64,000 nucleotides of DNA from a virus (lineage: Duplodnaviria; Caudoviricetes), in the IMG/VR virus record IMGVR_UViG_3300028048_000072, positions 68,723 to 132,722 of that record. The stretch is one strand, 5' to 3'. How positions within the stretch are numbered: position 1 is the first letter of the stretch; each line of letters starts with the position of its first letter. Made by a program: the position numbers and the translations under genes. A model generated the notes under the pieces. It did not search any database. It was not told where the DNA came from and worked only from the letters and a program-made list of their open reading frames with translations. Below are positions 4,036 through 20,357 of the stretch, piece after piece.

Positions 4036-5835
4036 ATGGTAAAAATCTATCTTGATATGTCAGATGGATATATGCATTTTAAAATAGAAAAAGAATTAGC
4101 ATGGAATACAATTCAGTCTATTTTTAAAATGAATCATGTAAAATTTGATTATTCATCTAAAACATATATAGAAGAACCATCTTTAAAAGCAAAAAATCTT
4201 TATGATGAATTAAAAGATTATACTGATGTTGAAATTTCAGAAGATGATTTATCTATGTTAGATTTTGCCACTTATCCACCTAGTAATGAAGTTAGAAGAA
4301 TTAAATATTCTGTAAATAAAGAATTGATTGAAAAGCATCCACCAATGAAAGGTGTGGAAGGTCATGAAAACTTTCAGTTAGAAGCAATAAAGAAAGTAAT
4401 CATGAATAATAGACTTTTAGTAGATGTATCATGTCGACATGGGAAAAGTTATATTTCGATTATTTCTTTCGGTAGTCTTTTGTTGAAAAATGTAATTGAT
4501 AAAGTTTTTGTGGTTTGCAGACCTGAAGGAATAGTGAATTATAAATTAGAAATTTTAAGATTTTTACCTTTTATTAAAGAAGATGATATTGCAATTATTA
4601 CAAAAGATAATCGTAATATTGAAGATTATTTTAATAAGAAAATTATTATAACATCATATAATACATTCAGATTAACATCTGTTTATTATAAAACTTTGAG
4701 AACAAAGAAAATAAAAGATAAAAAAACTACAATGAAAAGTGCTAGAAAATCTTATGTTGATTTTTCAAAGTTTGGTAATAACAGAATGATTATTCTTGAT
4801 GAATGTCAATCTATAAATAATTATAGTTCTCAACAATCTACATGTTTACATTTAATTAAAGATTATTTTGAAAGACGTGTAGAAATGAGTGGAAGCATCG
4901 GGTATAAATTTCTGCAGATGTACTCATTGTGTAAATTTTTAGTACCACAAAGAATCCCATATAATTTTTCTGAATGGAAGAATTTGGTATCTAAAGATGA
5001 TTGGGGTAGAGAATTAAATGAAGAAAAAGTAAAGGAATTTAAAGAAAATGTTATTGATGATTTAATGATTTCATATCATAATTGTGTACCACAGAAAGAA
5101 GAAAATTTTGAATTAATATATATCGATATGGATGATAAAATGAGAAAAATTTATCAAGAATTTTCTTCTAGTGTAATAAATGATTTGGTAAAAGAAAATA
5201 ATGGTGAAGTAACTAGACAATCAATTCTTGAAAAATTAAATTATCTATCACAAATTACATCAGACCCATCTTTATTGGAAATAAAAGGTTGGAAATTGGA
5301 AGATAATCCAAAAGTAGAAATTTTAAAATCACTTTTTGAAAAATATATCGATGATGAAGATAGAAAAGTTATTGTATGGTCAAATCATCCTAGAGTATTA
5401 AATGGATTAGCAGAAATATTTTCTAATTATAATCCATGTGTAATTCATGGTGATGAAAAAACATCTGTAAAAAGAGAAAATAGAATTGATAGAGTAAACG
5501 AATTTAAAAATGACCCTAAACAAAAAATATTGTTTACAAATAAAGTTTTATCTACATCAATTTCTTTAGTAGAATGTAGTGTAAATATCTATTTTGACGT
5601 ACCATCTGATGCAGATTATTTTGAGCAATCTAGGAAACGTGAGCAAGGTGCTTTACAGAAAAAAGAAATTTATACAAATATATTAATGTTTGATAAATCA
5701 GTAGACCTTTATTTATATTACGAAGTTTTATTGAAAAAACAGACAATGAAAGGATTAATTTCTATGAAAGATAAATTAGGATTGGAAGATTATAAAAATA
5801 TTTTAAATCCAAAAAGAGAATATTTTATAGAATAA
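4036..5835 (+). CDS. SNF2/SF2-family helicase
   Basis: degenerate Walker A (RHGKS), DECQ motif II, MSGS motif III, C-terminal helicase domain (KVIVWS, QSRKR). Confidence 0.8.
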   Translation: MVKIYLDMSDGYMHFKIEKELAWNTIQSIFKMNHVKFDYSSKTYIEEPSLKAKNLYDELKDYTDVEISEDDLSMLDFATYPPSNEVRRIKYSVNKELIEKHPPMKGVEGHENFQLEAIKKVIMNNRLLVDVSCRHGKSYISIISFGSLLLKNVIDKVFVVCRPEGIVNYKLEILRFLPFIKEDDIAIITKDNRNIEDYFNKKIIITSYNTFRLTSVYYKTLRTKKIKDKKTTMKSARKSYVDFSKFGNNRMIILDECQSINNYSSQQSTCLHLIKDYFERRVEMSGSIGYKFLQMYSLCKFLVPQRIPYNFSEWKNLVSKDDWGRELNEEKVKEFKENVIDDLMISYHNCVPQKEENFELIYIDMDDKMRKIYQEFSSSVINDLVKENNGEVTRQSILEKLNYLSQITSDPSLLEIKGWKLEDNPKVEILKSLFEKYIDDEDRKVIVWSNHPRVLNGLAEIFSNYNPCVIHGDEKTSVKRENRIDRVNEFKNDPKQKILFTNKVLSTSISLVECSVNIYFDVPSDADYFEQSRKREQGALQKKEIYTNILMFDKSVDLYLYYEVLLKKQTMKGLISMKDKLGLEDYKNILNPKREYFIE

Positions 5836-6009
5836 AGTTGAAAAATATACAAATTTATTATACAATAAATTCATCTTAAATAAGTGGAGAATTGTTATGG
5901 ATGAACTTACAAAAAATTTCTTACAAAAGAAACAATATTTAATTTATAGTAAATATATTTTTGTAGATAACTATCTAATATAAAGAATAAATATATTTTA
6001 GGAGATATT

Positions 6010-7174
6010 ATGTCATAACTTAATTTTAGAATTTTATAAACCAACTTATAATCTTGATTTTGATTATGATGGTGACGGTGGATTGGATTTACATTTCACA
6101 AACATTAAAGGTGAGTTCTTCATGACAATGAATGACAGTTATAATTCTGTTTACATTGAAGATGAAGATTGTGAATTCTCAAAAGGTGAAATGTTTGCTA
6201 CTGTAGATTTGGGCGACTTGGTTGAAAGAATTGTTCAAGGTGAATTCAGACAGACTAATGGAAAAGCAGTTAGTGATTGGGGTAAACGATTCATTGGTGA
6301 TGGTGAAGAAAGAATAGAATTTAATGGTAAGAATTATGCAGATGGCTTATCATTTTGGAATGATTTCTTTAAGGAAATGCCAAAAGATGAAATTAAAGAT
6401 TTCATGACATTCTGTGAAGATTACCTTTATTTGCCGAACATTGAAGTTGATACTGTTTCAGATAAGTATGATTTTGAAAACGGCAAAGTTGAATTAAAAT
6501 CTAATGGTAAATGGGGTATTACCATTAATGATGATTACACAATTATTTCAGTTGATGAATTTACTTGTAATTCTACAGACGCTTGTGATACTTATGATGT
6601 TGCAAGTTCTGAATCAGATGTAGATGATTATTATGAATCAAAGAAATCTGTAAGAAAATCTTTGAAAGAAGGAATTGATGTTAAAATCGTATATTGGGAC
6701 GACACCCCTACAGATTATCTTGACGATGTTACAAGAAATGATATTATTGATTTGGAAAATGACGCAAATGTTTATAAAATCATCGATGTAACTAATGGCA
6801 AGAAGAAAACAATTTATTTGGATGAATCAAAGAAATCTGCTAGAAAATCTTTGAAAGAATCAACAGATGAAGATTTTTCACTTTATGACCTTAATAAACA
6901 CGACCCTTTTGTAAAAGAATGGGTTAAAAATATCAATAAAGAACTTAAAGATGTTTCTATTGAATCAATTGGTGATGATGAAATTGTATTTAGAGTTTGG
7001 TTTGATGAAACTATGGATTTGGATATTTTTGATGATATCGTAACCGATTGTATGCCTAAAACATTAATTGAGTTTATGTCTGATATGAATATTGATTTTG
7101 GTTATCAGTTTGTGTATGAAGATGATAAATTTACAGAAAATGATTTTGTATTTATCAGATTTGTAGCATGGTAA
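6010..7174 (+). CDS. acidic modular protein with two ESKKSxRKSLKE linkers; RBS-linked ATG 6010 is 1 nt out of frame with ORF 6083..7174
   Basis: ORF track 6083..7174, frame open upstream through 6011; GGAGA RBS + ATG at 6010 reads M-S-stop. Confidence 0.6.
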
Positions 7175-8152
7175 TATAGGAGAAAATAGTATGAATAAAA
7201 TTTTTAATGAACTTGAAAAATATTGCGATAGACATTCTGTTAAATTGCAAATTGATGAATTTCCCAAAGATAAAAATAGATTTGAAATAACACTTGATAA
7301 TTTTATATATGAAGAATTGAGCGATATTCGTAACATTATTCGAGATTTTGCTAAAATAGAAGATGATGTTCATTTAGCAGGAAATGGTAGAGCAATTGAT
7401 ATTTATATTGAAGATTTAAATGAATCAAAGTCTATGAAAGAATCTGTAGATGGAAAATTCGCTACAGATGAAGAATGTAATATGGCTGGTGAAGGTTGGA
7501 TTCTTGAAGGTACATATAATTTCATAATGGAATTTCTTGAAGAATGGGGAATCGCACCTACAGATGTGATACCTCAAAAACATGATACACTTGCTTTGTA
7601 TAACACTGATGGAAATGTTTTTGGATATTGCCACCATGATGATGAAGTTGATATTTATGTAGTTGATAAAGAAATCAATTATTTTTGGAAAAATTACAAG
7701 CCTTCAACTAAGCGTGTAAAAGTAACTGCTTTTGATGAAATATTTTAATTAAAAATAAATTATGGGGGGGGGAATTAAATATGGCTAGTGAATTTGATGT
7801 TTATTCTTTTGTAAAAGGTGAATTTGGAGTAGAAATTGTAGGTCAAGGAAAAAATGGAACTTATGACACAGTTCATCTATATATTCAACCTTTTAGTAGA
7901 AATAATGATAAATTGGCGGTTGATGAATATGTAGGAAGATATGCAGAAACACCAAGTTGGTCTAAAATATTCACTCTTTCAGAAAATGATTTATCTGACG
8001 CAATAAAAATATACAACAATTATGTTGTATCTAGCGATAGAATAGATATTCACATGATTGATAAAGAAATTTATAAAGAAGTAAAAATGAGATTGAATGA
8101 TATTTTTGAAATAAAAGAATCAAAGAAATCTGTCAGAAAATCTTTGAAAGAA
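6635..8152 (+). repeat. 36-bp dispersed coding repeat GAATCAAAGAAATCTGNNAGAAAATCTTTGAAAGAA (x3, plus one short variant)
   Basis: copies at 6635-6670, 6824-6859, 8117-8152; variant at 7422-7442. Confidence 0.9.
7191..7748 (+). CDS. acidic two-module protein with ESKSMKE linker
   Basis: AGGAG RBS; shortened copy of the linker at 7422-7442. Confidence 0.65.
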   Translation: MNKIFNELEKYCDRHSVKLQIDEFPKDKNRFEITLDNFIYEELSDIRNIIRDFAKIEDDVHLAGNGRAIDIYIEDLNESKSMKESVDGKFATDEECNMAGEGWILEGTYNFIMEFLEEWGIAPTDVIPQKHDTLALYNTDGNVFGYCHHDDEVDIYVVDKEINYFWKNYKPSTKRVKVTAFDEIF

Positions 8153-8359
8153 AAAGTTACAGTTGCTAAATCATTGAAAATTATAGAATGTGCTTTGTTG
8201 GATTTGATTCATGATGACACAATTCAAGAAGAGTTTAATATGGCTTTTGATGATGTTGATGGCATTTATGATTCTGTAGATGATATGTTTGAAGTTAGCG
8301 TACATAATGTACTGAATAAACTTCTTAAAGAACATACAATTACTGTGTTGCCGTTTTAA
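7781..8359 (+). CDS. two-module protein with ESKKSVRKSLKE linker
   Basis: linker at 8117-8152; G9 tract in RBS position. Confidence 0.65.
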   Translation: MASEFDVYSFVKGEFGVEIVGQGKNGTYDTVHLYIQPFSRNNDKLAVDEYVGRYAETPSWSKIFTLSENDLSDAIKIYNNYVVSSDRIDIHMIDKEIYKEVKMRLNDIFEIKESKKSVRKSLKEKVTVAKSLKIIECALLDLIHDDTIQEEFNMAFDDVDGIYDSVDDMFEVSVHNVLNKLLKEHTITVLPF

Positions 8360-8553: not shown

Positions 8554-9318
8554 ATGAGCGAAATAACTTTATATAAAGGTGATTGTTTAGAATTGATGAG
8601 CAATATAAAAGATAAATCGGTTGATATGATTTTGGCTGATTTACCGTATGGTCAATTAAAATCTGAAACTTTAAAATGGGATAATATAATTCCGTTTGAT
8701 AAGTTATGGGGACAGTATAATCGAGTTATTAAAGATAATGGTGTAATTGCTTTGTTTGGAAGTGGATTATTTACTGTAGATTTAATCAATTCGAATCGAA
8801 AAGATTTTAAATATAATCTTATTTGGGAAAAGAATGTTCCCACAGGAATGTCATCTGCAAAATATAGACCGATGAAATATTATGAAACAATTTCAGTATT
8901 TTATAAAGAACTTCCAACTTATAATCCAATTATGAAAGAAAGAATTGGAAAAGGTAAAGAATGTTATAATTATGAACATTATTGTGGAAATTCTAATCAT
9001 CTCAAATTAAATAAAATAAAGAAAAAATATGACCCTAATTTTGTACAACCTTCTGATATTTTGAAATTTGATGTAGTTCCAAATAGAAACGGAAAATTAC
9101 ATCCTACTCAAAAACCAACTGCTTTACTTGAATATCTCATCAAGACCTACACTAACGAAAATGAATGGATATTAGATAACTGTATGGGAAGTGGTAGTAC
9201 ATGTGTCGCTTGTATCAACACAAAAAGAAATTTTATCGGAATTGAAAAAGATGATAAATATTTTGAGATTGCGGAAGATAGGATAAACAAGGCGAAGGAA
9301 AGTATTTTTGACATGTGA
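8554..9318 (+). CDS. orphan DNA methyltransferase, N6/N4 beta class
   Basis: DLPY, HPTQKP, LDNCMGSGST. Confidence 0.93.
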   Translation: MSEITLYKGDCLELMSNIKDKSVDMILADLPYGQLKSETLKWDNIIPFDKLWGQYNRVIKDNGVIALFGSGLFTVDLINSNRKDFKYNLIWEKNVPTGMSSAKYRPMKYYETISVFYKELPTYNPIMKERIGKGKECYNYEHYCGNSNHLKLNKIKKKYDPNFVQPSDILKFDVVPNRNGKLHPTQKPTALLEYLIKTYTNENEWILDNCMGSGSTCVACINTKRNFIGIEKDDKYFEIAEDRINKAKESIFDM

Positions 9319-9332
9319 GAGGGAAATAAATT

Positions 9333-10151
9333 ATGAATTTTCAACCAGCGATTAAATGGAGTGGAAGTAAACGAAGCCAATGTGATGAAATTATTTCATA
9401 CTTCCCTAGAAAAATAGAAACTTATTATGAATCTTTTCTTGGTGGTGGTTCTGTAGCATACAGACTTATGAATTCTGATATAAAAGTGAATAAGTTTGTT
9501 TTGTCTGATTTGAATACAGATTTAATAAATTTATACAAACTCATACAGAATGATTACAAGTCAATTGTTTCTCACTATAAACTTTTATGGAATGAATTAA
9601 ACAAAGATTCAGACTTTGAAAGAAAGAAATTGTATTTTGCAGAAATAAGAAAAAGATTGAACGAAAAGCATGACCCTAAAGATTTTATGTTTATAATGCG
9701 TACTACTACAAATGGTATGCCAAGATATAATTCTGATGGTAATTTTAATAATACTTTTCATACAACTCGTTGTGGTATTGAACCTTTTAGGTTAGAAAAA
9801 ATATTAAAAGAATGGAATTTAGTGTTGAATAATCATAATGTGGAATTTATAAATGCAAGTTATGATACATTTAGTCCGAATGAAAATGATTTTTGTTATT
9901 ACGACCCACCTTATGCTAACACAAAAGGAATGTATTTTGGTGCAATAGATAATGATAAATTTTTTAACTTTCTTCAAAATTTAAAATGTCCGTACTGTTT
10001 TTCATTTGATGGATATTGTGAAGATGAGGACTCAACTTATGATGTGCCGAAATCTGTTTATGATGAACATATTTACCTAAAAGCAGGAAAATCTTCTTTT
10101 AGACGACTTGTTGGAAAATTTACAGATAAAATGGTATATGAAAGTCTATAA
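9333..10151 (+). CDS. Dam-like (D12 class) adenine methyltransferase; C-terminal tail appears frameshifted
   Basis: KWSGSK, ESFLGGG, DPPY; out-of-frame YKGCEKQKESLFDM* continues to 10191. Confidence 0.88.
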   Translation: MNFQPAIKWSGSKRSQCDEIISYFPRKIETYYESFLGGGSVAYRLMNSDIKVNKFVLSDLNTDLINLYKLIQNDYKSIVSHYKLLWNELNKDSDFERKKLYFAEIRKRLNEKHDPKDFMFIMRTTTNGMPRYNSDGNFNNTFHTTRCGIEPFRLEKILKEWNLVLNNHNVEFINASYDTFSPNENDFCYYDPPYANTKGMYFGAIDNDKFFNFLQNLKCPYCFSFDGYCEDEDSTYDVPKSVYDEHIYLKAGKSSFRRLVGKFTDKMVYESL

Positions 10152-10263
10152 AGGTTGTGAAAAGCAAAAGGAAAGTTTGTTTGATATGTAATAATTTTCA
10201 GTTTAGAATTGAAATTATTTCAGAAAGAGCATAAAATCATATAAAACAACATAAGGAATAAAT

Positions 10264-12399
10264 ATGAACGAAACAAATGTCAAGATAAAGAAAATCAAGA
10301 AAGTTATGAGTGAAACAAATTTTATTGGTGTCGATTTGAGTAAAGGTAGTGATGTAGGAACTTGTAATGGAAAAGTTACACCTAAAGTTGTAAAAAAAGT
10401 AAAGAAGATTGTAAAAGATGAATCTACCATGAAATCTGATGTTGTAGACAATTCTCCTTGCGATTTCAGTGATTTTGAAAGTGGTAAAGTTGAAGTATCT
10501 AGTTCTGCTAATGTGCCGACTGTGAAAAAGGTGAAGAAAGAAATTAAAAAAATTGTAAAAGATATTAAAGACGAAATATCTAATTCTACAGATGTAATTT
10601 CTTTTGTACGAGTCATTGACTTGAAAAGAGAAGATTATTCAGAATTTACTGAAGAAAAATATCCATACGGTTTGACCTTCCTAGATTTTGAGGTGTTCAA
10701 GTATGATTGGTTGGTAGTTTTGATAGATGTTATTGAATTAAAAGAAACTATAATTGTAAACGATAGAAAAGCGTTGTTGAAGTTCTATATGTCTCATCGT
10801 AACAAATTACACGCTTCATATAACGGTCGCTCTTACGATTCTACAATATATAAAGGAATTATTCTTGGTATGAATCCTAAAGAATTGAATGATAAATTGA
10901 TTGTAGAAAGATTAAAACCTTTTCAAATTAGTAATAAATTTAAAGAAGTTGAATTATTAAATTATGATATAATGACTAAAATAGAATCATTAAAGGTTCT
11001 TGAAGCGTACCTACAAGATTCTATATATGAATCAAAAATTTCTTTTGACATTGATAGACCTCTTACAATGGATGAACTTGAGGAAACGATTCGCTACTGC
11101 CATAACGATGTTGTGGAATGTAAAAAAGTTTTTCTTTTAAGACACGATGATTTTGAAGTTAGTATGGGTGTAATTGAAATGTTTAATTTACCTATATCAA
11201 ATATAAATCTTACAAATGCACAATTGACTGCTAAAGTTTTGGAATGTGAAAGACCAAAAGAAGATAGAAAAGATGAATTTAATTTGTGGGTAGTTGATAC
11301 AGTAAAACTTGAAAAATATAAAGACGTTATCGATTGGTTTATGAATCCTGCAAATCATGATTATAGTAAATTTTATGTTCGTGATGTTTGTGGTATGAAA
11401 CATAAATTTGGTTGGGGTGGATTACATTCTGTGAATGATGAACCGATGATTATCAACGAACATGTACAAGATTGGGATGTGGCTAGTCTTTATCCCTCAC
11501 TTGATATTCGATACGAGTTGCTAACTAGAAATTGTAAACATCCTGAAAAATTTAAATTTATTTATGACGAACGCATTCGATTAAAGAAAGCAAAAGACCC
11601 TAAGAACAAATGTTTGAAGTTGATTTTAAATTCAACTTATGGAATTTGTAAAGATAAAAACAGTTCTGCTTACGACCCTTTGATGTCAAACATGACTTGT
11701 CTTACAGGACAACTTTTAATTCTTATGTTAATTGAATGGATTGAACCTTATGTAAAAATATGGGTTCAAACCAATACGGACGGAATCCAGTTTGTTGCTA
11801 AAGATGGTTGTCAAGAAAAGATAGAAAGTTTAATTCACAAATGGGAAGGTGTATCAGGTATGAATATGGAAGTCGAAAATATTTTGAAAACTTACCAATC
11901 GAACGTCAACAATTATACCTTCCAACTAGATGATGGGTCGTTTAAAAGAAAAGGAGCATATCTTAAAAAAGCAACTCCACTAGACGCTGATTTACCAATT
12001 GTCAATGAAGCAATGTTTAATTTCTTAGCATATGGAAAAAAAATTGAAGATACTATAAATGAATGTAATGATTTATACATGTTTCAGAAAGTGTATAAAA
12101 TTTCATCAAACTACAAATATGGTTATCATAATGGCAAAGAAATTAACGAAAAGGTGTATCGTATTTTTGCTTCTAATGATTTGAAAGATACATGGTTAGG
12201 AAAACAGAAAGAAAAAGGGGGAACGATTGAAAAATTTGCAAATTGTCCAAATAACTGTTTTCTTGAATTGGGAGATATACATGGTAAAAAATGTTCAGAA
12301 TATCCTATGTTGAATAAACAATGGTATATTGATTTAGCACAAGATAGAATTGAAAAAGGTTATCATTTGGATTGTAAACCAAGTATTTTTGATTTTTAA
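10264..12399 (+). CDS. family B DNA polymerase with 3'-5' exonuclease and Lys-rich N-terminal extension
   Basis: Exo motifs DFE, YNGRSYD, YCHND; Pol motifs DVASLYPS, KLILNSTYG, NTDG. Confidence 0.9.
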   Translation: MNETNVKIKKIKKVMSETNFIGVDLSKGSDVGTCNGKVTPKVVKKVKKIVKDESTMKSDVVDNSPCDFSDFESGKVEVSSSANVPTVKKVKKEIKKIVKDIKDEISNSTDVISFVRVIDLKREDYSEFTEEKYPYGLTFLDFEVFKYDWLVVLIDVIELKETIIVNDRKALLKFYMSHRNKLHASYNGRSYDSTIYKGIILGMNPKELNDKLIVERLKPFQISNKFKEVELLNYDIMTKIESLKVLEAYLQDSIYESKISFDIDRPLTMDELEETIRYCHNDVVECKKVFLLRHDDFEVSMGVIEMFNLPISNINLTNAQLTAKVLECERPKEDRKDEFNLWVVDTVKLEKYKDVIDWFMNPANHDYSKFYVRDVCGMKHKFGWGGLHSVNDEPMIINEHVQDWDVASLYPSLDIRYELLTRNCKHPEKFKFIYDERIRLKKAKDPKNKCLKLILNSTYGICKDKNSSAYDPLMSNMTCLTGQLLILMLIEWIEPYVKIWVQTNTDGIQFVAKDGCQEKIESLIHKWEGVSGMNMEVENILKTYQSNVNNYTFQLDDGSFKRKGAYLKKATPLDADLPIVNEAMFNFLAYGKKIEDTINECNDLYMFQKVYKISSNYKYGYHNGKEINEKVYRIFASNDLKDTWLGKQKEKGGTIEKFANCPNNCFLELGDIHGKKCSEYPMLNKQWYIDLAQDRIEKGYHLDCKPSIFDF

Positions 12400-12422
12400 C
12401 AAATTAACTATTTTAGTAATTG

Positions 12423-12502
12423 AACGATTACAGATAGGTGTGCGAAACCTTAGAAAGTAAAGAAATCGACTCCTTTTACTTTCATATCTGCAATCGTTTT
12501 TT
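12423..12502 (+). ncRNA. putative three-way-junction small RNA antisense to the 5' UTR of the downstream endonuclease gene
   Basis: P1 12423-12436/12485-12498; loops GTGCGAA (12440-12446) and TCGACTCCT (12466-12474); T-tract; TAACTAT at 12405. Confidence 0.65.
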
Positions 12503-12588
12503 ATTTAATTATTTTATTTATAAATATTAACTATTTATTATGTGTTATTCGCACTAGCACAAAAAATTATTTCTATAGGAGTCGAATT

Positions 12589-13734
12589 ATGACAAAAGAA
12601 GAAGCAACTCAAAAATATTATAATTTAGTGGAATTATGTAAAATTGAAGATGTTGATTGTGAAAAATACAACATGCATCATATCGAACCAATTTTTACAT
12701 TGAAAGAAAAATACAATGTAAAACGAACTAAGGAAATTAGATATAATAAGAATATTGATTTTGGTGAAGAAATAAAATGTTCAATTCCGCATCACATAAT
12801 GTTACATTTTTATTTATGTTTTATGTTTGATAGAGGAACGACATTATATAAAAGTGCAAAATCTTCATTTTGGTTCATTACTAATAAAACATTAACGCAA
12901 AGTATAGAATCTTTAACAGAAGATGATGTTAAAAATATAGGTAAATATTGTGAAGAGTTGAAGAAAACTAATTGGACGGATGAAGATAAGAAAAATTATA
13001 GAAAAACTAATAAACGAATAGAAGCCGACAGAGAATATAGAAGAAAAAACAAAGAAAGATTAGCAAAACAACATAGCGAATATTATAAAGAACATAAAGA
13101 AGAAAGAATGGAATATTATGAAGAATGGAGAAGTAAAAATGAACCTAGATTGAGGGAATATAGAAAAGAAAGAAATCAAATAATAAGAAATCGCTTGTGT
13201 GTAGACCCAAGATGTATTATTAGTAATAAAATAAAATCAAAAATAACAAATTGGAGAAATTTGTCTAGTTGGATGGATAAAAATCCTCAAAATGAATTAG
13301 TAAAAGAATTTAAATCATCTAATGATTTTGCTGATTATTATCTTATTAAAGATGAAAATAACAATTATATATACGATATTGAATTAGCGGAATCTATCTT
13401 AAAAACAACGACAAATAAAAAATTTTCAAATATATTAAATTTTAAAATACAAGGAGTTAAAAATCCTAAAGATAGTAATGTTCGTTTATGTATAGACCCC
13501 AGATTTGGAAAAACGATAATTATATCTAAATACAAAAGTATAAATTGGAATTCAGAAATTACAGAATGGAGAAATTTGTATAATTGGTGTAAACGTAATT
13601 CTGATAATGAACTGATTGAAAATTTAAAACCCAATGAATTTGCAAACAAATATTTAATAATTGATTCAGAAGGAAATTACATTTATGATGAAGAAACAGC
13701 ATTAAAAATTATTAATAAAGAAAATAATGATTGA
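12589..13734 (+). CDS. free-standing HNH-like endonuclease with duplicated C-terminal domain
   Basis: HHIEP...HIMLH; charged helical repeat region; two RLCxDPR...WRNL...YLI repeats. Confidence 0.65.
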   Translation: MTKEEATQKYYNLVELCKIEDVDCEKYNMHHIEPIFTLKEKYNVKRTKEIRYNKNIDFGEEIKCSIPHHIMLHFYLCFMFDRGTTLYKSAKSSFWFITNKTLTQSIESLTEDDVKNIGKYCEELKKTNWTDEDKKNYRKTNKRIEADREYRRKNKERLAKQHSEYYKEHKEERMEYYEEWRSKNEPRLREYRKERNQIIRNRLCVDPRCIISNKIKSKITNWRNLSSWMDKNPQNELVKEFKSSNDFADYYLIKDENNNYIYDIELAESILKTTTNKKFSNILNFKIQGVKNPKDSNVRLCIDPRFGKTIIISKYKSINWNSEITEWRNLYNWCKRNSDNELIENLKPNEFANKYLIIDSEGNYIYDEETALKIINKENND

Positions 13735-13794
13735 TTTTATCCTAAAAATATTATACAATCTTTCTTATTACAAGAAAATAAGTGGGAAAATTGC

Positions 13795-15201
13795 ATGAAA
13801 GATGAAACTTTAAAAATTTCTATTTTGGAAAAACAGATTATTAAAAGTTGGTTGAATGACCCGTCTTTAATGATTGAGGATGACATTTTTTGTTCTGAAA
13901 CTGCAAAAGAATTACAGTTTATTTTATTAAATCTTAGGGATGAAAATAAAGATTTTACAGAAGAACACATTTTGTCTGAAAGTGTGGAATATGTAAATAA
14001 AGATACTTTAGATTCCATAAATGAAGTAAATTATCAAGAAGATAAAATAGAAGATTATGTTCAGAATTTAAGAAAAAAGAATATTTTGTTTTCATTTAAA
14101 AATGAACTTCTTCACGAAATAAATTCTGATGATAGTGATTTTGAAAAAGTAATTTCACTTCAATCATCCTTAGATGAAGCAATCAGTAAAATTGAAAATC
14201 CAAAAGAAGATGAAGGAATGTCTTTTAGTGATATGATTGACACTCATATCGAAACATTAAAAGACAGAAAAAACAATGTAAGTGTAAGTACGGGCGATTA
14301 TTTGTTAGACAGACTTGCAAAACCTACGGCAGGGATATGGACTATACTTGGGTATAGTGGTTCATGTAAATCAACTTTTGTTGCTACACAATTAAAGGCT
14401 AGAATTTCAAAAAGATTACCTACAGTTTATTTTAATACAGAACTTTCACAAGAAGGTGTAATGGATGGTTTGTTGTCATCTTTAATTAAAGAAACATATT
14501 ATGATATTCAAGGTATGTATAATGATGATGAACATATTGATTTTGATACAATTATTGAAAAATGTAAGTATTTGGCAGAACATTCTGATAAATCAAAATT
14601 CGCATATTTTCCAAATTCTACAGTAAGTGTAAATGATATTAAAAGATTTTCTCTTATTCAAAGAAAGAAAATGGGATTAAAGAAAAATGAATTATTGTTT
14701 GTATATGTAGACCTTTTATCTATGGTAAAAGAATTTCAAGAAAATACTAGAGGTTCTAACCGTTCAGATGTCATTTTACAAGCATTGAATAAATTGAATG
14801 ATATTGCTTTAGCAAACAATTTATTGATTATTGGTACTGTACAAGCGAAACGTATGCCAACGGGAATTAAGATTAATAAAGAAGAAGATATTATGAAATT
14901 TCAATTGGATGCTAGTGCGATTAGGGATTCAGGTGGATATGAAGAAAGAAGTCGTTGTATTTTTAGTATTTTTAATCCTTACAATATTGTTCGCAAAAAC
15001 CCATGTAGTGAAGTTATTAAAGCAATAACAGAACCAATAATTTATGTTAAAACTCTAAAAAATACATATGGCGAAGTTGGAAAAGAAGTATATTATTATT
15101 TCGATGCAGATTATAAAAATCTTTATCCTTATGAAGGTGAATTACCTAACTATAGTTTAGATGAAGAAGATGAAACGGAGAATGTAGAAAATGACGATTG
15201 A
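13795..15201 (+). CDS. DnaB-like replicative helicase
   Basis: Walker A GYSGSCKST, FNTE, YVDLL, TVQ, IRDSG motifs. Confidence 0.82.
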   Translation: MKDETLKISILEKQIIKSWLNDPSLMIEDDIFCSETAKELQFILLNLRDENKDFTEEHILSESVEYVNKDTLDSINEVNYQEDKIEDYVQNLRKKNILFSFKNELLHEINSDDSDFEKVISLQSSLDEAISKIENPKEDEGMSFSDMIDTHIETLKDRKNNVSVSTGDYLLDRLAKPTAGIWTILGYSGSCKSTFVATQLKARISKRLPTVYFNTELSQEGVMDGLLSSLIKETYYDIQGMYNDDEHIDFDTIIEKCKYLAEHSDKSKFAYFPNSTVSVNDIKRFSLIQRKKMGLKKNELLFVYVDLLSMVKEFQENTRGSNRSDVILQALNKLNDIALANNLLIIGTVQAKRMPTGIKINKEEDIMKFQLDASAIRDSGGYEERSRCIFSIFNPYNIVRKNPCSEVIKAITEPIIYVKTLKNTYGEVGKEVYYYFDADYKNLYPYEGELPNYSLDEEDETENVENDD

Positions 15202-15514
15202 AAAGTTTATTAAAAAATTACAGTCTTATAAAAATCAAGATTGTTATGAAAAATGGATTTATTGTGAAAACTCTAAAATAATATATACAATTGAAGCATT
15301 TAATATTTTAAATAATACTTGTTTTATTTGGTTGAATGATTCTGATGATTGTAAAACAAATTATACACCTAAATCATTAGTTAGAGATTTATCACCTTAT
15401 ACAAAATGGCAGAAAGATTTTATTATTGAATTTGTAGATGATGAAAGAAATGAAGTTTATACTGAAAATTCATTCTATACAGAATTTGATAATTTATATA
15501 TTAATATGAGATAG
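15191..15514 (+). CDS. hypothetical protein
   Basis: ORF overlapping helicase stop. Confidence 0.55.
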   Translation: MTIEKFIKKLQSYKNQDCYEKWIYCENSKIIYTIEAFNILNNTCFIWLNDSDDCKTNYTPKSLVRDLSPYTKWQKDFIIEFVDDERNEVYTENSFYTEFDNLYINMR

Positions 15515-15525
15515 GAAATTAAAAA

Positions 15526-16295
15526 ATGAGTATAGAATTAATTAAAGGTGATTGTCTTAAAGAAATGAAAAATATTAAAGATGAATCTGTGCAACTTATT
15601 CTTACAGATTTACCTTATGGTACTACACCTTTAGAATTTGATAAAGAGATAATTCCTTTTGAACCTTTATGGAAAGAATATAAAAGAATTATTAAGAAAA
15701 ATGGTGCTATTGTATTATTTGCTCAACAACCTTTTACAAGTAAATTAATCATGTCTAATTTAGATATGTATAAATATAATTGGATATGGGTAAAAGATAA
15801 TGCAACAAATTTCTTGAATAAACGTTATCAATGTGGAAAGATTACGGAAGATATTTGTGTATTTGGAAAAGGTGCATGTTCTTTTACTAAGAATGGTATT
15901 AATATGAAATATAATCCACAAATGGAAGTTGGAAAACCGTATAAAACTACTAATAATGTGTTTAGAAGAAAGTGTGCGGTCGTGAGGGGGGGATTAGAAA
16001 TGTCGATACAATAAATAATGGTGAAAGATTGCCAAATAATTTATTGTATTTTTCACATGATACAGATGAAAGATTGCATCCTACACAAAAGCCTTTAGAT
16101 TTAATTAGATATTTGATTAAGACTTATACTGATGAAAATGATTTGGTTTTAGATTCGTGCATGGGAAGTGGAACTACTGCTATAGGATGTTTTGCAGAAA
16201 AGAGAAATTTTATCGGATATGAAATTGATGATAATTATTTTGAAATTGCAAAGAAAAGATATGAAAAAGTAAGTACAAGTATATTTGATATGTAA
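15526..16295 (+). pseudogene. beta-class DNA methyltransferase split by a frameshift in a G7 tract (possibly phase-variable)
   Basis: DLPY in 15526..16014; HPTQKP and DSCMGSG in 15972..16295; G7 at 15986-15992, and G8 restores the frame. Confidence 0.85.
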
Positions 16296-16338
16296 TTGTA
16301 TTTGTGATATAATTTCTGTTAGTTGGAGGATTACTACT

Positions 16339-16749
16339 TTGAAATTAATAAAACAAGAAAAAGAAATGTTGGAAAATCTTAGAAACATAAGCGGTGAAAA
16401 TCAAGAAAGAATCGCTAATGTATTGAAAGCCTTGTCTTTATCTACACTTATGAATTATGCAGATGATGAACACAATATTTTTATTCCATATTTTGGATGC
16501 TTACATATTGTTTATAAAGGTGATATTATTGTAGATAATAAACGTGAAGCAGATTTGGATATTCAGTTTTTTCCTAGTTCATATCTTAAATTAAATATTG
16601 GTGAAATTGAAGATATTAAAAAGAATGGAAATACTATTGATATTATGAAAATTCCAATTATCAATGAAATATCAAAAGATATTGAAAACGGTCTTAGAAA
16701 TATAATTGATGGTACTACAGATTTAAATGATGAAGAAAACAACGGGTAA
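16339..16749 (+). CDS. HU/IHF-like DNA-binding protein (divergent)
   Basis: IPYFGCL...FFPSSYLK resembles HU GFGxF...FxP motifs; GGAGG RBS before TTG 16339. Confidence 0.45.
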   Translation: MKLIKQEKEMLENLRNISGENQERIANVLKALSLSTLMNYADDEHNIFIPYFGCLHIVYKGDIIVDNKREADLDIQFFPSSYLKLNIGEIEDIKKNGNTIDIMKIPIINEISKDIENGLRNIIDGTTDLNDEENNG

Positions 16750-17503
16750 ATATATGGAATTAAATTTTATTGAAGATTTTAAACCTTGTGGAAAATGTAA
16801 TAAAGGTTTTACAATTTTTGAAGGTCGTGTAAAACCTTGTTCATGTTGGTTAAATTATAAAAATAAAATTAAACTTTTTGGAAAATATTTGGATTCAAAT
16901 CTTTTACAGAAAGAATCAACTTCAAGTAATGCAGAAGAACTCATTAATTATACTTTGTGTAATTATAAAGGAAATGATGAAAATAAAAATCTTCCAAAAT
17001 TGCAGAAGTTTATTGAAAAGTTTGATGAAAAGTTTAATACAATTTCATTATTTTTCTATGGTGAAATGGGAACACAAAAAACTCATATTGCTAAATGGAT
17101 TTTAACTTCTTTAATAAGTAAAGGTAAATCAACTTATTATATCTCTAGTAAAGATATAATTGATTTGATTATGAAAAGTGAAAGAGATGAAGAAAGTCAA
17201 AATCTTGTAGATTATATTACAAAAGTTGATTGTTTAGTATTGGATGAATTTACAAGATTGAATTACTTTTCTACAGATTATAAACAGAAAGTTTTATATT
17301 CATGGCTTAAAACAAGATTGGAATCTGTTCATAAATCTACAATTATTATTGATAATATAAAAGTAGATGAAATTAAAAATTCTCCTATGGGTGAAAATAT
17401 TGGTCAATTAATTGAAAGAAATACAAAAGAATGTGTATTTGAATTTAAAGATAATTATTACTCTAATGGTGGTGGAGTTGATTTGAAAGGATTGTGGGAT
17501 TAG
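16727..17503 (+). CDS. DnaC/IstB-like AAA+ ATPase (helicase loader)
   Basis: CxxC...CxC N-terminus, GEMGTQKT Walker A, LVLDE Walker B. Confidence 0.75.
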   Translation: MMKKTTGKYMELNFIEDFKPCGKCNKGFTIFEGRVKPCSCWLNYKNKIKLFGKYLDSNLLQKESTSSNAEELINYTLCNYKGNDENKNLPKLQKFIEKFDEKFNTISLFFYGEMGTQKTHIAKWILTSLISKGKSTYYISSKDIIDLIMKSERDEESQNLVDYITKVDCLVLDEFTRLNYFSTDYKQKVLYSWLKTRLESVHKSTIIIDNIKVDEIKNSPMGENIGQLIERNTKECVFEFKDNYYSNGGGVDLKGLWD

Positions 17504-17506
17504 ATT

Positions 17507-18247
17507 ATGAGTAAAGTTGAATTGTATAATGAAGATTGCTTGGAAGTAATGGAGGGGGTGGCAGATAAATCGGTAGACATGATTTTATGTGATTTACCTT
17601 ATAATGTTACTGCTTGCGAATGGGATATATTAATACCTTTTGATAAATTATGGGGGCAATATAATAGAATTATAAAAGACAATGGTGCGATTGTATTATT
17701 TGGTACAGAACCGTTCTCTACACAATTAAAAATGAGTAATCTGAAACATTATAAATATGATTGGATTTGGAATAAAGTTCGTGGTGTAGGATTTCAAATT
17801 GCAAAATATAGACCAATGCAACAACATGAATATATTTCTGTATTTTGCAACGGTAAATTAAATTATTATCCTATTATGGAAAAAAGAGATAAAGTGAAAA
17901 AATCTAAAAATTATGGTAATTCTAAAGTTTGCAGATTACAAAGTAATGATATGAAAGAAAGAATTTATACAGAAAAATATCCAACTTCAATTTTAACTTA
18001 TTCTAATGCTTCTCAAAAAGGTAGATTGCATCCAAGTCAAAAACCTACAAATTTATTAGAATATCTTATAAAGACTTATACAAAAGAAAACGAAACAGTT
18101 TTGGACAATTGTATGGGAAGTGGAAGTACAGGTGTCGCTTGTATTAATACAAATCGCAATTTCATCGGCATTGAAAAAGACGACAAGTATTTCAAGATTG
18201 CGGAAGATAGGATAAACAAAGCGAAAGAAAGTATTTTTGATATGTAA
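17507..18247 (+). CDS. orphan DNA methyltransferase, N6/N4 beta class
   Basis: DLPY, HPSQKP, LDNCMGSGST; paralog of 8554..9318. Confidence 0.93.
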   Translation: MSKVELYNEDCLEVMEGVADKSVDMILCDLPYNVTACEWDILIPFDKLWGQYNRIIKDNGAIVLFGTEPFSTQLKMSNLKHYKYDWIWNKVRGVGFQIAKYRPMQQHEYISVFCNGKLNYYPIMEKRDKVKKSKNYGNSKVCRLQSNDMKERIYTEKYPTSILTYSNASQKGRLHPSQKPTNLLEYLIKTYTKENETVLDNCMGSGSTGVACINTNRNFIGIEKDDKYFKIAEDRINKAKESIFDM

Positions 18248-19604: not shown

Positions 19605-20357
19605 ATGACAGTAAATAAAAATTCAATTATTTTGGGTGATTGTTTAAGTGGATTAAAAGAAATTGAAGATAATACATTTGACGTTGCTTTTACATCACCA
19701 CCGTATGGGGATATAGGAACAGAATCTTTTGAAGAAATTAAAGCAAAAGGTAAAGGTAATAATCCTTATGGTACTCATAGAAAATATCTGAATGTCGAAC
19801 AACATATTGATGATTGGTATGAATGGCAAGTTGAAATTATAGATGAACTTCTTAGAATTTGTAAGAAATGGGTAATTTATAATATTGGTGCTATTAAAGT
19901 TAATAGAGAAAATGTTTATAAATTAATCGGTCATTATGCAGACAGAATACATGACGATATTATATGGTACAAAAGTAATGGATTGCCGTGTAGAAACGAA
20001 GGTTCTATTTCTAATACATATGAACATATTCTTTTGATAAAAAAGAATCCAAAAGATATGATTCATGTAAAATCACATTGTTTTAGAAATGTCATTGAAG
20101 AAGGTGTAAATTCACAAAATGAATTTGCACACATTCATCATGCCGTAATGAATAAAAGAATTTCTGATATCTGCATCAATGAATTTACAGATGTTGGTGA
20201 TTTTGTAATTGACCCGTTTATGGGAATGGGAACTACGGCTATGAGTTGTATTGATTTGAAAAGAAATTATTTTGGATTTGAAATTTGTGAAGAATATTAT
20301 AAAAATTGTTTGCAAAGAATTCAAAATAGAAATATGATTAATGATATATGGGAATGA
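19605..20357 (+). CDS. DNA methyltransferase, beta class, probably N4-cytosine
   Basis: TSPPY, HHAV, DPFMGMGTT. Confidence 0.9.
   Translation: MTVNKNSIILGDCLSGLKEIEDNTFDVAFTSPPYGDIGTESFEEIKAKGKGNNPYGTHRKYLNVEQHIDDWYEWQVEIIDELLRICKKWVIYNIGAIKVNRENVYKLIGHYADRIHDDIIWYKSNGLPCRNEGSISNTYEHILLIKKNPKDMIHVKSHCFRNVIEEGVNSQNEFAHIHHAVMNKRISDICINEFTDVGDFVIDPFMGMGTTAMSCIDLKRNYFGFEICEEYYKNCLQRIQNRNMINDIWE

Follow-up and report, generated by a model that had tools for sequence, protein, structure and literature searches.

Clamp-coupled DNA methylation, as performed by DNMT1 together with PCNA, is textbook biology in animals, while in bacteria the β-clamp-binding motif is carried by Pol II (QLGLF), Pol IV, Hda, and MutL, among others. 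The canonical form of this motif is Q-φ-x-[L/M]-[F/L], and no methyltransferase is discussed in a 2024 review of β-clamp partners, since the word 'methyl' is absent from it (PMC11139829). In phages RB69 and T4, the C-terminal peptide of the RB69 DNA polymerase gp43 has been reported to bind the RB69 clamp, and the clients named for the T4 clamp are gp43, gp33, ligase (through a loop), and RNase H, with no methyltransferase among them (PMC6212786). DNMT1 itself is a DNA methyltransferase with a PCNA-binding motif that acts on newly replicated DNA (PMC9690074), and the phage Mu C protein contains a clamp-binding motif and depends on the host β clamp (bioRxiv 10.1101/2025.01.04.631326). Our literature searches turned up no bacterial or phage methyltransferase described as having a clamp-binding motif. 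Here, we describe a short C-terminal peptide shared by the DNA polymerase, the primase, and nearly all of the DNA methyltransferases of a large, uncultured phage, IMG/VR record IMGVR_UViG_3300028048_000072 (linear, 132,722 bp, 26.7% GC). The window analysed comprises bases 68,723–132,722 of this record (64,000 nucleotides), and its positions 8554–18247 form a plus-strand module of replication and modification genes, as judged from profile matches and reading of the translations.

The polymerase, the primase, and nearly all methyltransferases of this phage share a short C-terminal add-on, and the phage has a sliding clamp and a clamp loader (Table 1). An earlier note made from the sequence of the window had listed the C-termini KESIFDM (8554–9318), STSIFDM (15972–16295), KESIFDM (17507–18247), and KPSIFDF (polymerase, 10264–12399), as well as KESLFDM in a frameshifted tail just past the stop codon of a Dam-like gene; all of them were found as described, the last one being followed by a stop and lying at 10171–10191 in the +1 frame, beyond the Dam-like stop at 10149–10151. 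The pattern S[IL]FD[MF]-stop occurs at five sites in the six-frame translation of the 132,722-bp record, all of them inside 8554–18247, while from the amino-acid composition of the 159 genes about 0.0005 genes with such an ending would be expected. A looser pattern, [SDTN][ILMV]F[DNTES][MFWLIY]-stop, is present in 6 of the 159 genes against 0.055 expected, and a still looser one, [ILMV]-F-x-[MFWLIY]-stop, selects the identical six genes and no more. These are the N6_N4 methyltransferases MT1, MT2, and MT3, the polymerase, the primase, and a second D12-class methyltransferase (D12-B), the primase and D12-B both lying outside the window. No structural, lysis, or metabolic gene among the 159 genes of the record was found to carry the tail. 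The objection raised in the earlier note, that the motif might be equally common on non-replication proteins, is thus answered by the list of carriers, which consists of the polymerase, the primase, and four methyltransferases.

The methyltransferases were assigned by family-profile matches above the curated cut-off (PF01555 for N6_N4 and PF02086 for D12), and the tail is present in both of these classes, as had been claimed, and in a third class in relatives. The view that one peptide had been placed on several enzymes was borne out, with the primase to be added to the list, but the three N6_N4 tails have a single origin: MT1, MT2, and MT3 are paralogues, and their tails therefore represent one acquisition rather than three. 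In MT1 and MT3, the last 30 residues differ at one position. The independent carriers are the N6_N4 lineage, the first D12-class enzyme (Dam-A), D12-B, the polymerase, and the primase. The tail lies C-terminal of the folded domain: in MT1 and MT3, 13 residues separate the end of the Pfam domain from the stop. The dipeptide [I/L/M]-F is present in every tail, which matches the aliphatic plus Phe/Leu requirement of the β-clamp motif.

The earlier note had proposed a search for a phage clamp. A clamp and its loader were found, although the clamp proved to be DnaN-like rather than gp45-like. It was first spotted on the map of open reading frames and was then identified through PHROG, a homologue profile, and fold comparison. 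The gene matches phrog_947 'DNA polymerase processivity factor' weakly (E 1.3e-4), and a profile built from the family of its homologues (41 representatives) matches β clamps in the PDB (E 1e-6). The AlphaFold2 (AF2) model of the protein, with a predicted local distance difference test score (pLDDT) of 94.2 and a predicted template modelling score (pTM) of 0.87, has the three-domain β-clamp fold, with TM scores of 0.68–0.75 to more than 40 DnaN structures in Foldseek. The top Foldseek matches are all bacterial DnaN proteins, the best being 2awa (E 6e-19, TM 0.75), at 10–15% identity. When the record was searched directly with the Pfam profiles of DnaN (PF00712), gp45 (PF02916), and PCNA, no match was obtained, so that no gp45-type partner, such as the RB69/T4 clients have, was found in it. 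A tblastn search with the clamp gave no match in 50,697 phage records, and no IMG/VR relative was found by peptide patterns, the alignment being too divergent for a pattern scan.

Table 1. Location of the tail carriers, the sliding clamp and its loader, and neighbouring genes. Positions are those of the window unless marked 'genome' (positions in the whole record).
Feature	Position	Strand	Evidence
185-aa protein, ends ...TAFDEIF, doubtful extra carrier	7191..7748	+	no Pfam/PHROG match
MT1, N6_N4 DNA methyltransferase, 254 amino acids (aa)	8554..9318	+	PF01555 E 1e-31, 111 bits; domain ends at residue 241/254
MT1 tail KESIFDM	encoded 9295-9315	+	translation
Dam-A, D12-class adenine methyltransferase, cut short at ...YESL	9333..10151	+	PF02086 E 7e-32, 111 bits
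Dam-A orphaned tail, +1 frame (YKGCEKQKESLFDM-stop)	10147..10191	+	translation of +1 frame
Family-B DNA polymerase, 711 aa	10264..12399	+	phrog_1252 E 1e-129
Polymerase tail KPSIFDF	encoded 12376-12396	+	
HNH-like gene with duplicated C-terminal domain, between polymerase and helicase	12589-13734		no Pfam/PHROG match
DnaB-like replicative helicase, tail-less	13795..15201	+	phrog_19 E 7.5e-17
MT2, N6_N4 methyltransferase, two frames	15526..16295	+	halves match PF01555 positions 1-130 and 155-221, 28 and 80 bits
MT2 tail STSIFDM	encoded 16272-16292	+	
DnaC-like helicase loader, ends ...GLWD (orthologue ...NIWDD)	16727..17503	+	phrog_50 E 9e-26
MT3, N6_N4 DNA methyltransferase, 246 aa	17507..18247	+	PF01555 E 4e-31, 109 bits; domain ends at residue 233/246
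MT3 tail KESIFDM	encoded 18224-18244	+	
MT4, N6_N4 methyltransferase without Phe tail, ends ...NDIWE	19605..20357	+	PF01555 E 3e-25
DnaG-type primase, ends ...NDIFTW	genome 31406-32383	-	PF01807 zinc finger; phrog_47 E 4e-33
Beta-type (DnaN-like) sliding clamp, 352 aa	genome 37162-38220	-	PHROG, profile, AF2 and Foldseek
D12-B, second D12 (Dam-like) methyltransferase, ends ...NDIFNM	genome 54070-54981		PF02086, 42 bits; directly upstream of clamp loader
Clamp loader	genome 55052-56221		phrog_5846 E 7e-32; PF13177

The polymerase itself has no Pfam match, and no PDB relative was found for it by sequence; the motifs DxxSLYPS, KxxxNSxYG, and TDG are nevertheless readable in its translation, and PF00136 is present in some of its homologues. 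The SLFDMF-type peptide of RB69, cited in the earlier note, was confirmed from the RB69 record (NC_004928), in which gp43 ends with ASLFDMFDF. Set against the peptides of RB69 (SLFDMF) and T4 (LDFLF), the endings SIFDF and SIFDM found here resemble that of RB69. As in RB69/T4 gp43, the peptide is located at the extreme C-terminus of a family-B polymerase, and SLFDMF is common to RB69 and the close relatives of the phage polymerase: polymerases 82–92% identical to it, P0001 and P0003 among them, end with KPSLFDMF. Among the best 120 polymerase homologues, 22 have an RB69-like tail, 84 end with [LIMGA]F, including the canonical β-clamp motifs QLSLF and QLELF, and 10 end at the domain. The nearest isolate relatives of the polymerase are found in approximately 40-kb phages of Paenibacillus, Bacillus, and Enterococcus. 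The sharing of the peptide by several different enzymes of one phage is another feature in common with RB69/T4 (PMC6212786). However, the clamp of RB69/T4 is gp45, while that of the phage studied here is a three-domain DnaN-like protein, and its polymerase is not T4-like, unlike gp43. The tail also has features in common with the bacterial β-clamp motif: both are short linear motifs at a terminus or in a disordered region, both have an aliphatic-Phe core, a β-type clamp is present in both cases, and true Qxx[LI]F endings occur among distant homologues of the polymerase and of the methyltransferases alike. In contrast to the bacterial motif, position 1 of the tail is not Gln, and two extra residues (Asp-Met/Phe) come after the Phe.

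Add-on tails were likewise observed in homologues of the methyltransferases. Thirty of the best 120 MT3 homologues have them, with endings such as ...QNQLF, ...QQELF, ...QTSIF..., ...QQDIFTL, and ...ESIFDM, while the others stop at the domain; tail-less N6_N4 homologues end with ...ERIDKA, i.e., at the domain end. Among cultured phages with MT3-like enzymes, the only two alignments reaching the tail, those of Lactobacillus phage Silenus and Geobacillus phage PT9.1, showed no tail, and no cultured model phage was found among them.

The tail of Dam-A is conserved in its homologues, although it has been lost from the reading frame in this record. Of the 120 listed homologues, 89 have it in frame; nearly all of these 89 are 287 aa long, and they run from ...YESLY[IV]KGC to ...KQKES[LI]FDM. 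In these 89 proteins, Phe is found in all 89 and Asp in 88, and the residue before Phe is only Leu or Ile. Dam-A homologues at about 61% identity end with ...ESLYLK, without a tail. The closest relatives, on ENA and Logan contigs, have identities of 86–94% for Dam-A and 82–97% for the polymerase. DNA alignment with a 218-kb relative indicated that a 5-nt deletion near 10149/10150 creates the Dam-A stop and throws the tail into the +1 frame. One further database protein, P0327 (272 aa), ends where the truncated Dam-A ends, so the tail-less form of Dam-A may be a genuine allele and not an error of assembly. Two other explanations for the orphaned tail were considered: it is not the remnant of a deleted N6_N4 paralogue, since the 89 homologues have it in frame, and a programmed +1 frameshift at CUA-UAA-A was rejected in favour of the plain 5-nt deletion. 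The DNA from about 10163 to approximately 25 nt past the stop of the orphaned tail is homologous to the 3′ end of MT3, and this resemblance suggests that the tail spread between genes by recombination. MT2 is a second damaged carrier: it is broken at a run of seven G residues (15986–15992) into two overlapping frames, 15526–16014 and 15972–16295, the latter being the C-terminal half. This split could be due to phase variation or to a homopolymer sequencing error.

The 218-kb relative (IMGVR_UViG_3300021387_000796, hereafter G005; 218,066 bp, 92% complete) encodes the same clamp (E 3e-94). The tail is present there on all nine stand-alone PF01555/PF02086 methyltransferases and on two phrog_799 methyltransferase-like proteins, i.e., on 11 proteins of three families. 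The polymerase of G005, ending with ...PSMFEEFF, and its primase, ending with ...DEIFWL, are both tail carriers, while its helicase, ligase, RecA, exonuclease, clamp, and loader are without the tail. Between the two genomes, the tail is kept on orthologous pairs, whereas most other C-termini differ. In the relative L087, the carriers are Dam-A, an N6_N4 enzyme, a phrog_799 protein, the polymerase, and an HNH-like protein; the last of these (4923–6353) is the homologue of the HNH-like gene 12589–13734, ends with ...NNTVFEM, and is thus tailed there. A DUF7487 protein of the relative L086 (3168–4535) ends with ...NTIFEM. Co-variation of the tails was examined on IMG/VR records: in the unrelated phage L002, the polymerase ends with ...FSLF and the adjacent methyltransferase with ...KALF, so that the tail flavour goes with that of the phage's own polymerase. 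The clamp was not found in the fragmentary relatives L086, L087, L002, and L042 (16–66% complete), and a scan of IMG/VR with the primase gave no match.

Taken together with the composition of the carrier set, the resemblance of the tail to known clamp-binding peptides makes it probable that the shared peptide is a clamp-docking motif and that the methyltransferases ride the clamp, so that methylation would be coupled to replication. A wider proposal is that this clade of large, low-GC phages has placed its whole modification set on its own β-type clamp by means of the RB69-like peptide that the polymerase and the primase also bear. The set would comprise 6 to 11 methyltransferases from three classes and might extend to acetyltransferase-like and HNH-like enzymes. 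In our opinion, this proposal has an even chance of being correct. The peptide would insert into the phage clamp's hydrophobic pocket and not into that of the host clamp. In such a mechanism, the docking motif x-[S/D]-[I/L/M]-F-[D/E/N]-[M/F/L/W] would have been copied onto almost all methyltransferases of the phage, including N6_N4 enzymes, two D12 lineages, and a third class in relatives. A methyltransferase would be held by clamps loaded at phage replication forks or remaining on completed Okazaki fragments, and since a dimeric ring has two pockets, the enzyme could take the pocket free of the polymerase or ride the clamps of the lagging strand. Newly made phage DNA would thereby be methylated at many motifs immediately after its synthesis. 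The most plausible benefit would be protection from host restriction; this anti-restriction purpose is presumed.

Several observations weigh against clamp docking or limit it. The tail lacks the Gln of the canonical β-clamp motif: the corresponding position, four residues before Phe, is occupied by Lys in MT1, MT3, the polymerase, and Dam-A, by Ser in MT2, by Pro in D12-B, and by Glu in the primase, and the Gln of the Dam-A tail is located five residues before Phe, one out of register. RB69, the closest sequence match, docks its peptide on a gp45-type trimer and not on a β-type clamp. AF2 models the MT3 tail as an extension of the final helix, with pLDDT dropping to 69, and not as a free disordered end. 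The tail is not specific to methylation, since it is carried by a GNAT-like protein and a 157-aa protein of unknown function in G005 and by the HNH-like and DUF7487 proteins in L087 and L086. Finally, the record itself is incomplete, with a CheckV completeness of 72%.

Other partners for the tail were also considered. It could bind another hub of the replisome, such as SSB, the helicase, or some other phage protein, or target the enzymes to a replication compartment, resulting in co-recruitment without the clamp. The presence of the tail on the primase, which is no classical clamp client, and on the GNAT-like protein is consistent with this, as is a second motif, VKKVKKIV, shared by the N-terminus of the polymerase and the C-terminus of the clamp loader, which may point to several short docking peptides in the replisome. 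However, the tail exactly matches SLFDMF, the core of the clamp-binding peptide of RB69, and homologous polymerases have canonical β-clamp motifs at the same position, which makes another hub unlikely. Alternatively, the tails could dock on host DnaN instead of, or besides, the phage clamp, using host clamps at phage forks or competing with host clients. The S-[IL]-F core corresponds to the last three residues of QLSLF, and distant polymerase homologues, together with a quarter of the MT3 homologues, end with the canonical Qxx[LI]F; these belong largely to approximately 40-kb phages, which are not expected to encode a clamp. We nevertheless consider docking on host DnaN quite unlikely, because the phage has a loader and a divergent clamp of its own (10–15% identity to bacterial clamps), the S[IL]FD[ML] flavour is seen in this clade only, and the Gln that is important for bacterial clamp binding (PMC11139829) is absent from the tail.

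Functions outside the replisome explain the data less well. A short, exposed, hydrophobic C-terminal peptide present only on early-gene products could be a degron or a regulatory tag that limits the lifetime of early enzymes, but this would leave the match to clamp-binding peptides and the co-variation of flavour with the polymerase tail unaccounted for, and there is no reason for an essential polymerase and accessory enzymes to share such a signal; we regard it as very unlikely. It is extremely unlikely that the shared ending has no function in the protein and is a by-product of a repeated DNA element (a terminator, promoter, or recombination scar) or of recent duplication, even though MT1, MT2, and MT3 are paralogues and the Dam-A tail with about 25 nt of downstream DNA is homologous to the 3′ end of MT3. 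The copies differ in synonymous codons (gat/gac, att/ata), the sequences downstream of MT1, MT2, and the polymerase are unrelated, and the tails of the primase and D12-B share no DNA with the others. The maintenance of the tail in frame in the 89 Dam-A homologues, with conservative changes and an invariant Phe, argues strongly against such an origin.

If the tails bind the clamp, these phages would win the race between replication and restriction by wiring methyltransferases to the fork. Clamp docking would explain the protection of the genome at many motifs at once, and methylation would be confined to phage DNA, since the phage clamp would be present only there. Such a system would be a viral anti-restriction counterpart of DNMT1-PCNA, with which it would share a methyltransferase bearing a clamp motif and putatively acting on new DNA. 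However, DNMT1 is an unrelated C5 cytosine methyltransferase with a role in epigenetic inheritance, while the phage enzymes are small, of the N6/N4 adenine type, have C-terminal tails, number up to 11 per genome, and presumably serve anti-restriction. The Mu C protein is a further example of a non-polymerase phage protein with a clamp motif, although C is a transcription factor and acts on the clamp of the host, whereas the carriers described here are DNA-modification enzymes, putatively on the phage clamp. The distinctive features of the present case are the DnaN-type clamp, the RB69-type peptide on a polymerase that is not T4-like, the primase as a carrier, and two carriers that are naturally damaged, Dam-A by its 5-nt deletion and MT2 by the split at its G7 run. 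That an RB69-type peptide occurs together with a DnaN-type clamp is relevant to the evolution of clamp-peptide recognition. If clamp docking is correct, the tail would also serve as a portable tag: further clamp clients of uncultured phages could be recognised by a simple sequence rule, a C-terminus resembling that of the polymerase encoded in the same genome.

Among the neighbouring genes, the DnaC-like helicase loader and MT4, with their endings ...GLWD and ...NDIWE, may represent Trp variants of the tail. For the 185-aa protein (7191..7748), no orthologue was found in the comparison with the 218-kb relative. On either side of it lie acidic proteins without Pfam or PHROG matches (6083–7174 and 7781–8359), in which the motif ESKKSxRKSLKE recurs, twice in the former and once in the latter; it is also present once in a protein of G005. 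No match among isolate phages was found for a 565-aa protein of the late region.

The second motif of the replisome proteins, [PT][TK]V(V)KKVKKIV, is present in three copies in the N-terminal extension of the polymerase (residues 8, 43, and 87; window 10264–10560) and at the extreme C-terminus of the clamp loader. It also ends a small protein of G005, whose orthologue in this record (genome 56517–57062) adjoins the loader, and it was found nowhere else in the proteomes of the record or G005. It may be a second docking peptide of the replisome.

Elsewhere in the record, a Pif1-like helicase is split by a LAGLIDADG domain (genome 40026–42617), and a GroEL-like chaperonin with an intein and homing endonuclease (genome 62078–64705) is followed by a TnpB/Cas12f-like gene (64878–66176). 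A 693-aa protein (genome 44501–46582) contains DUF7487 repeats and a weak C-terminal match to N6_N4 methyltransferases.

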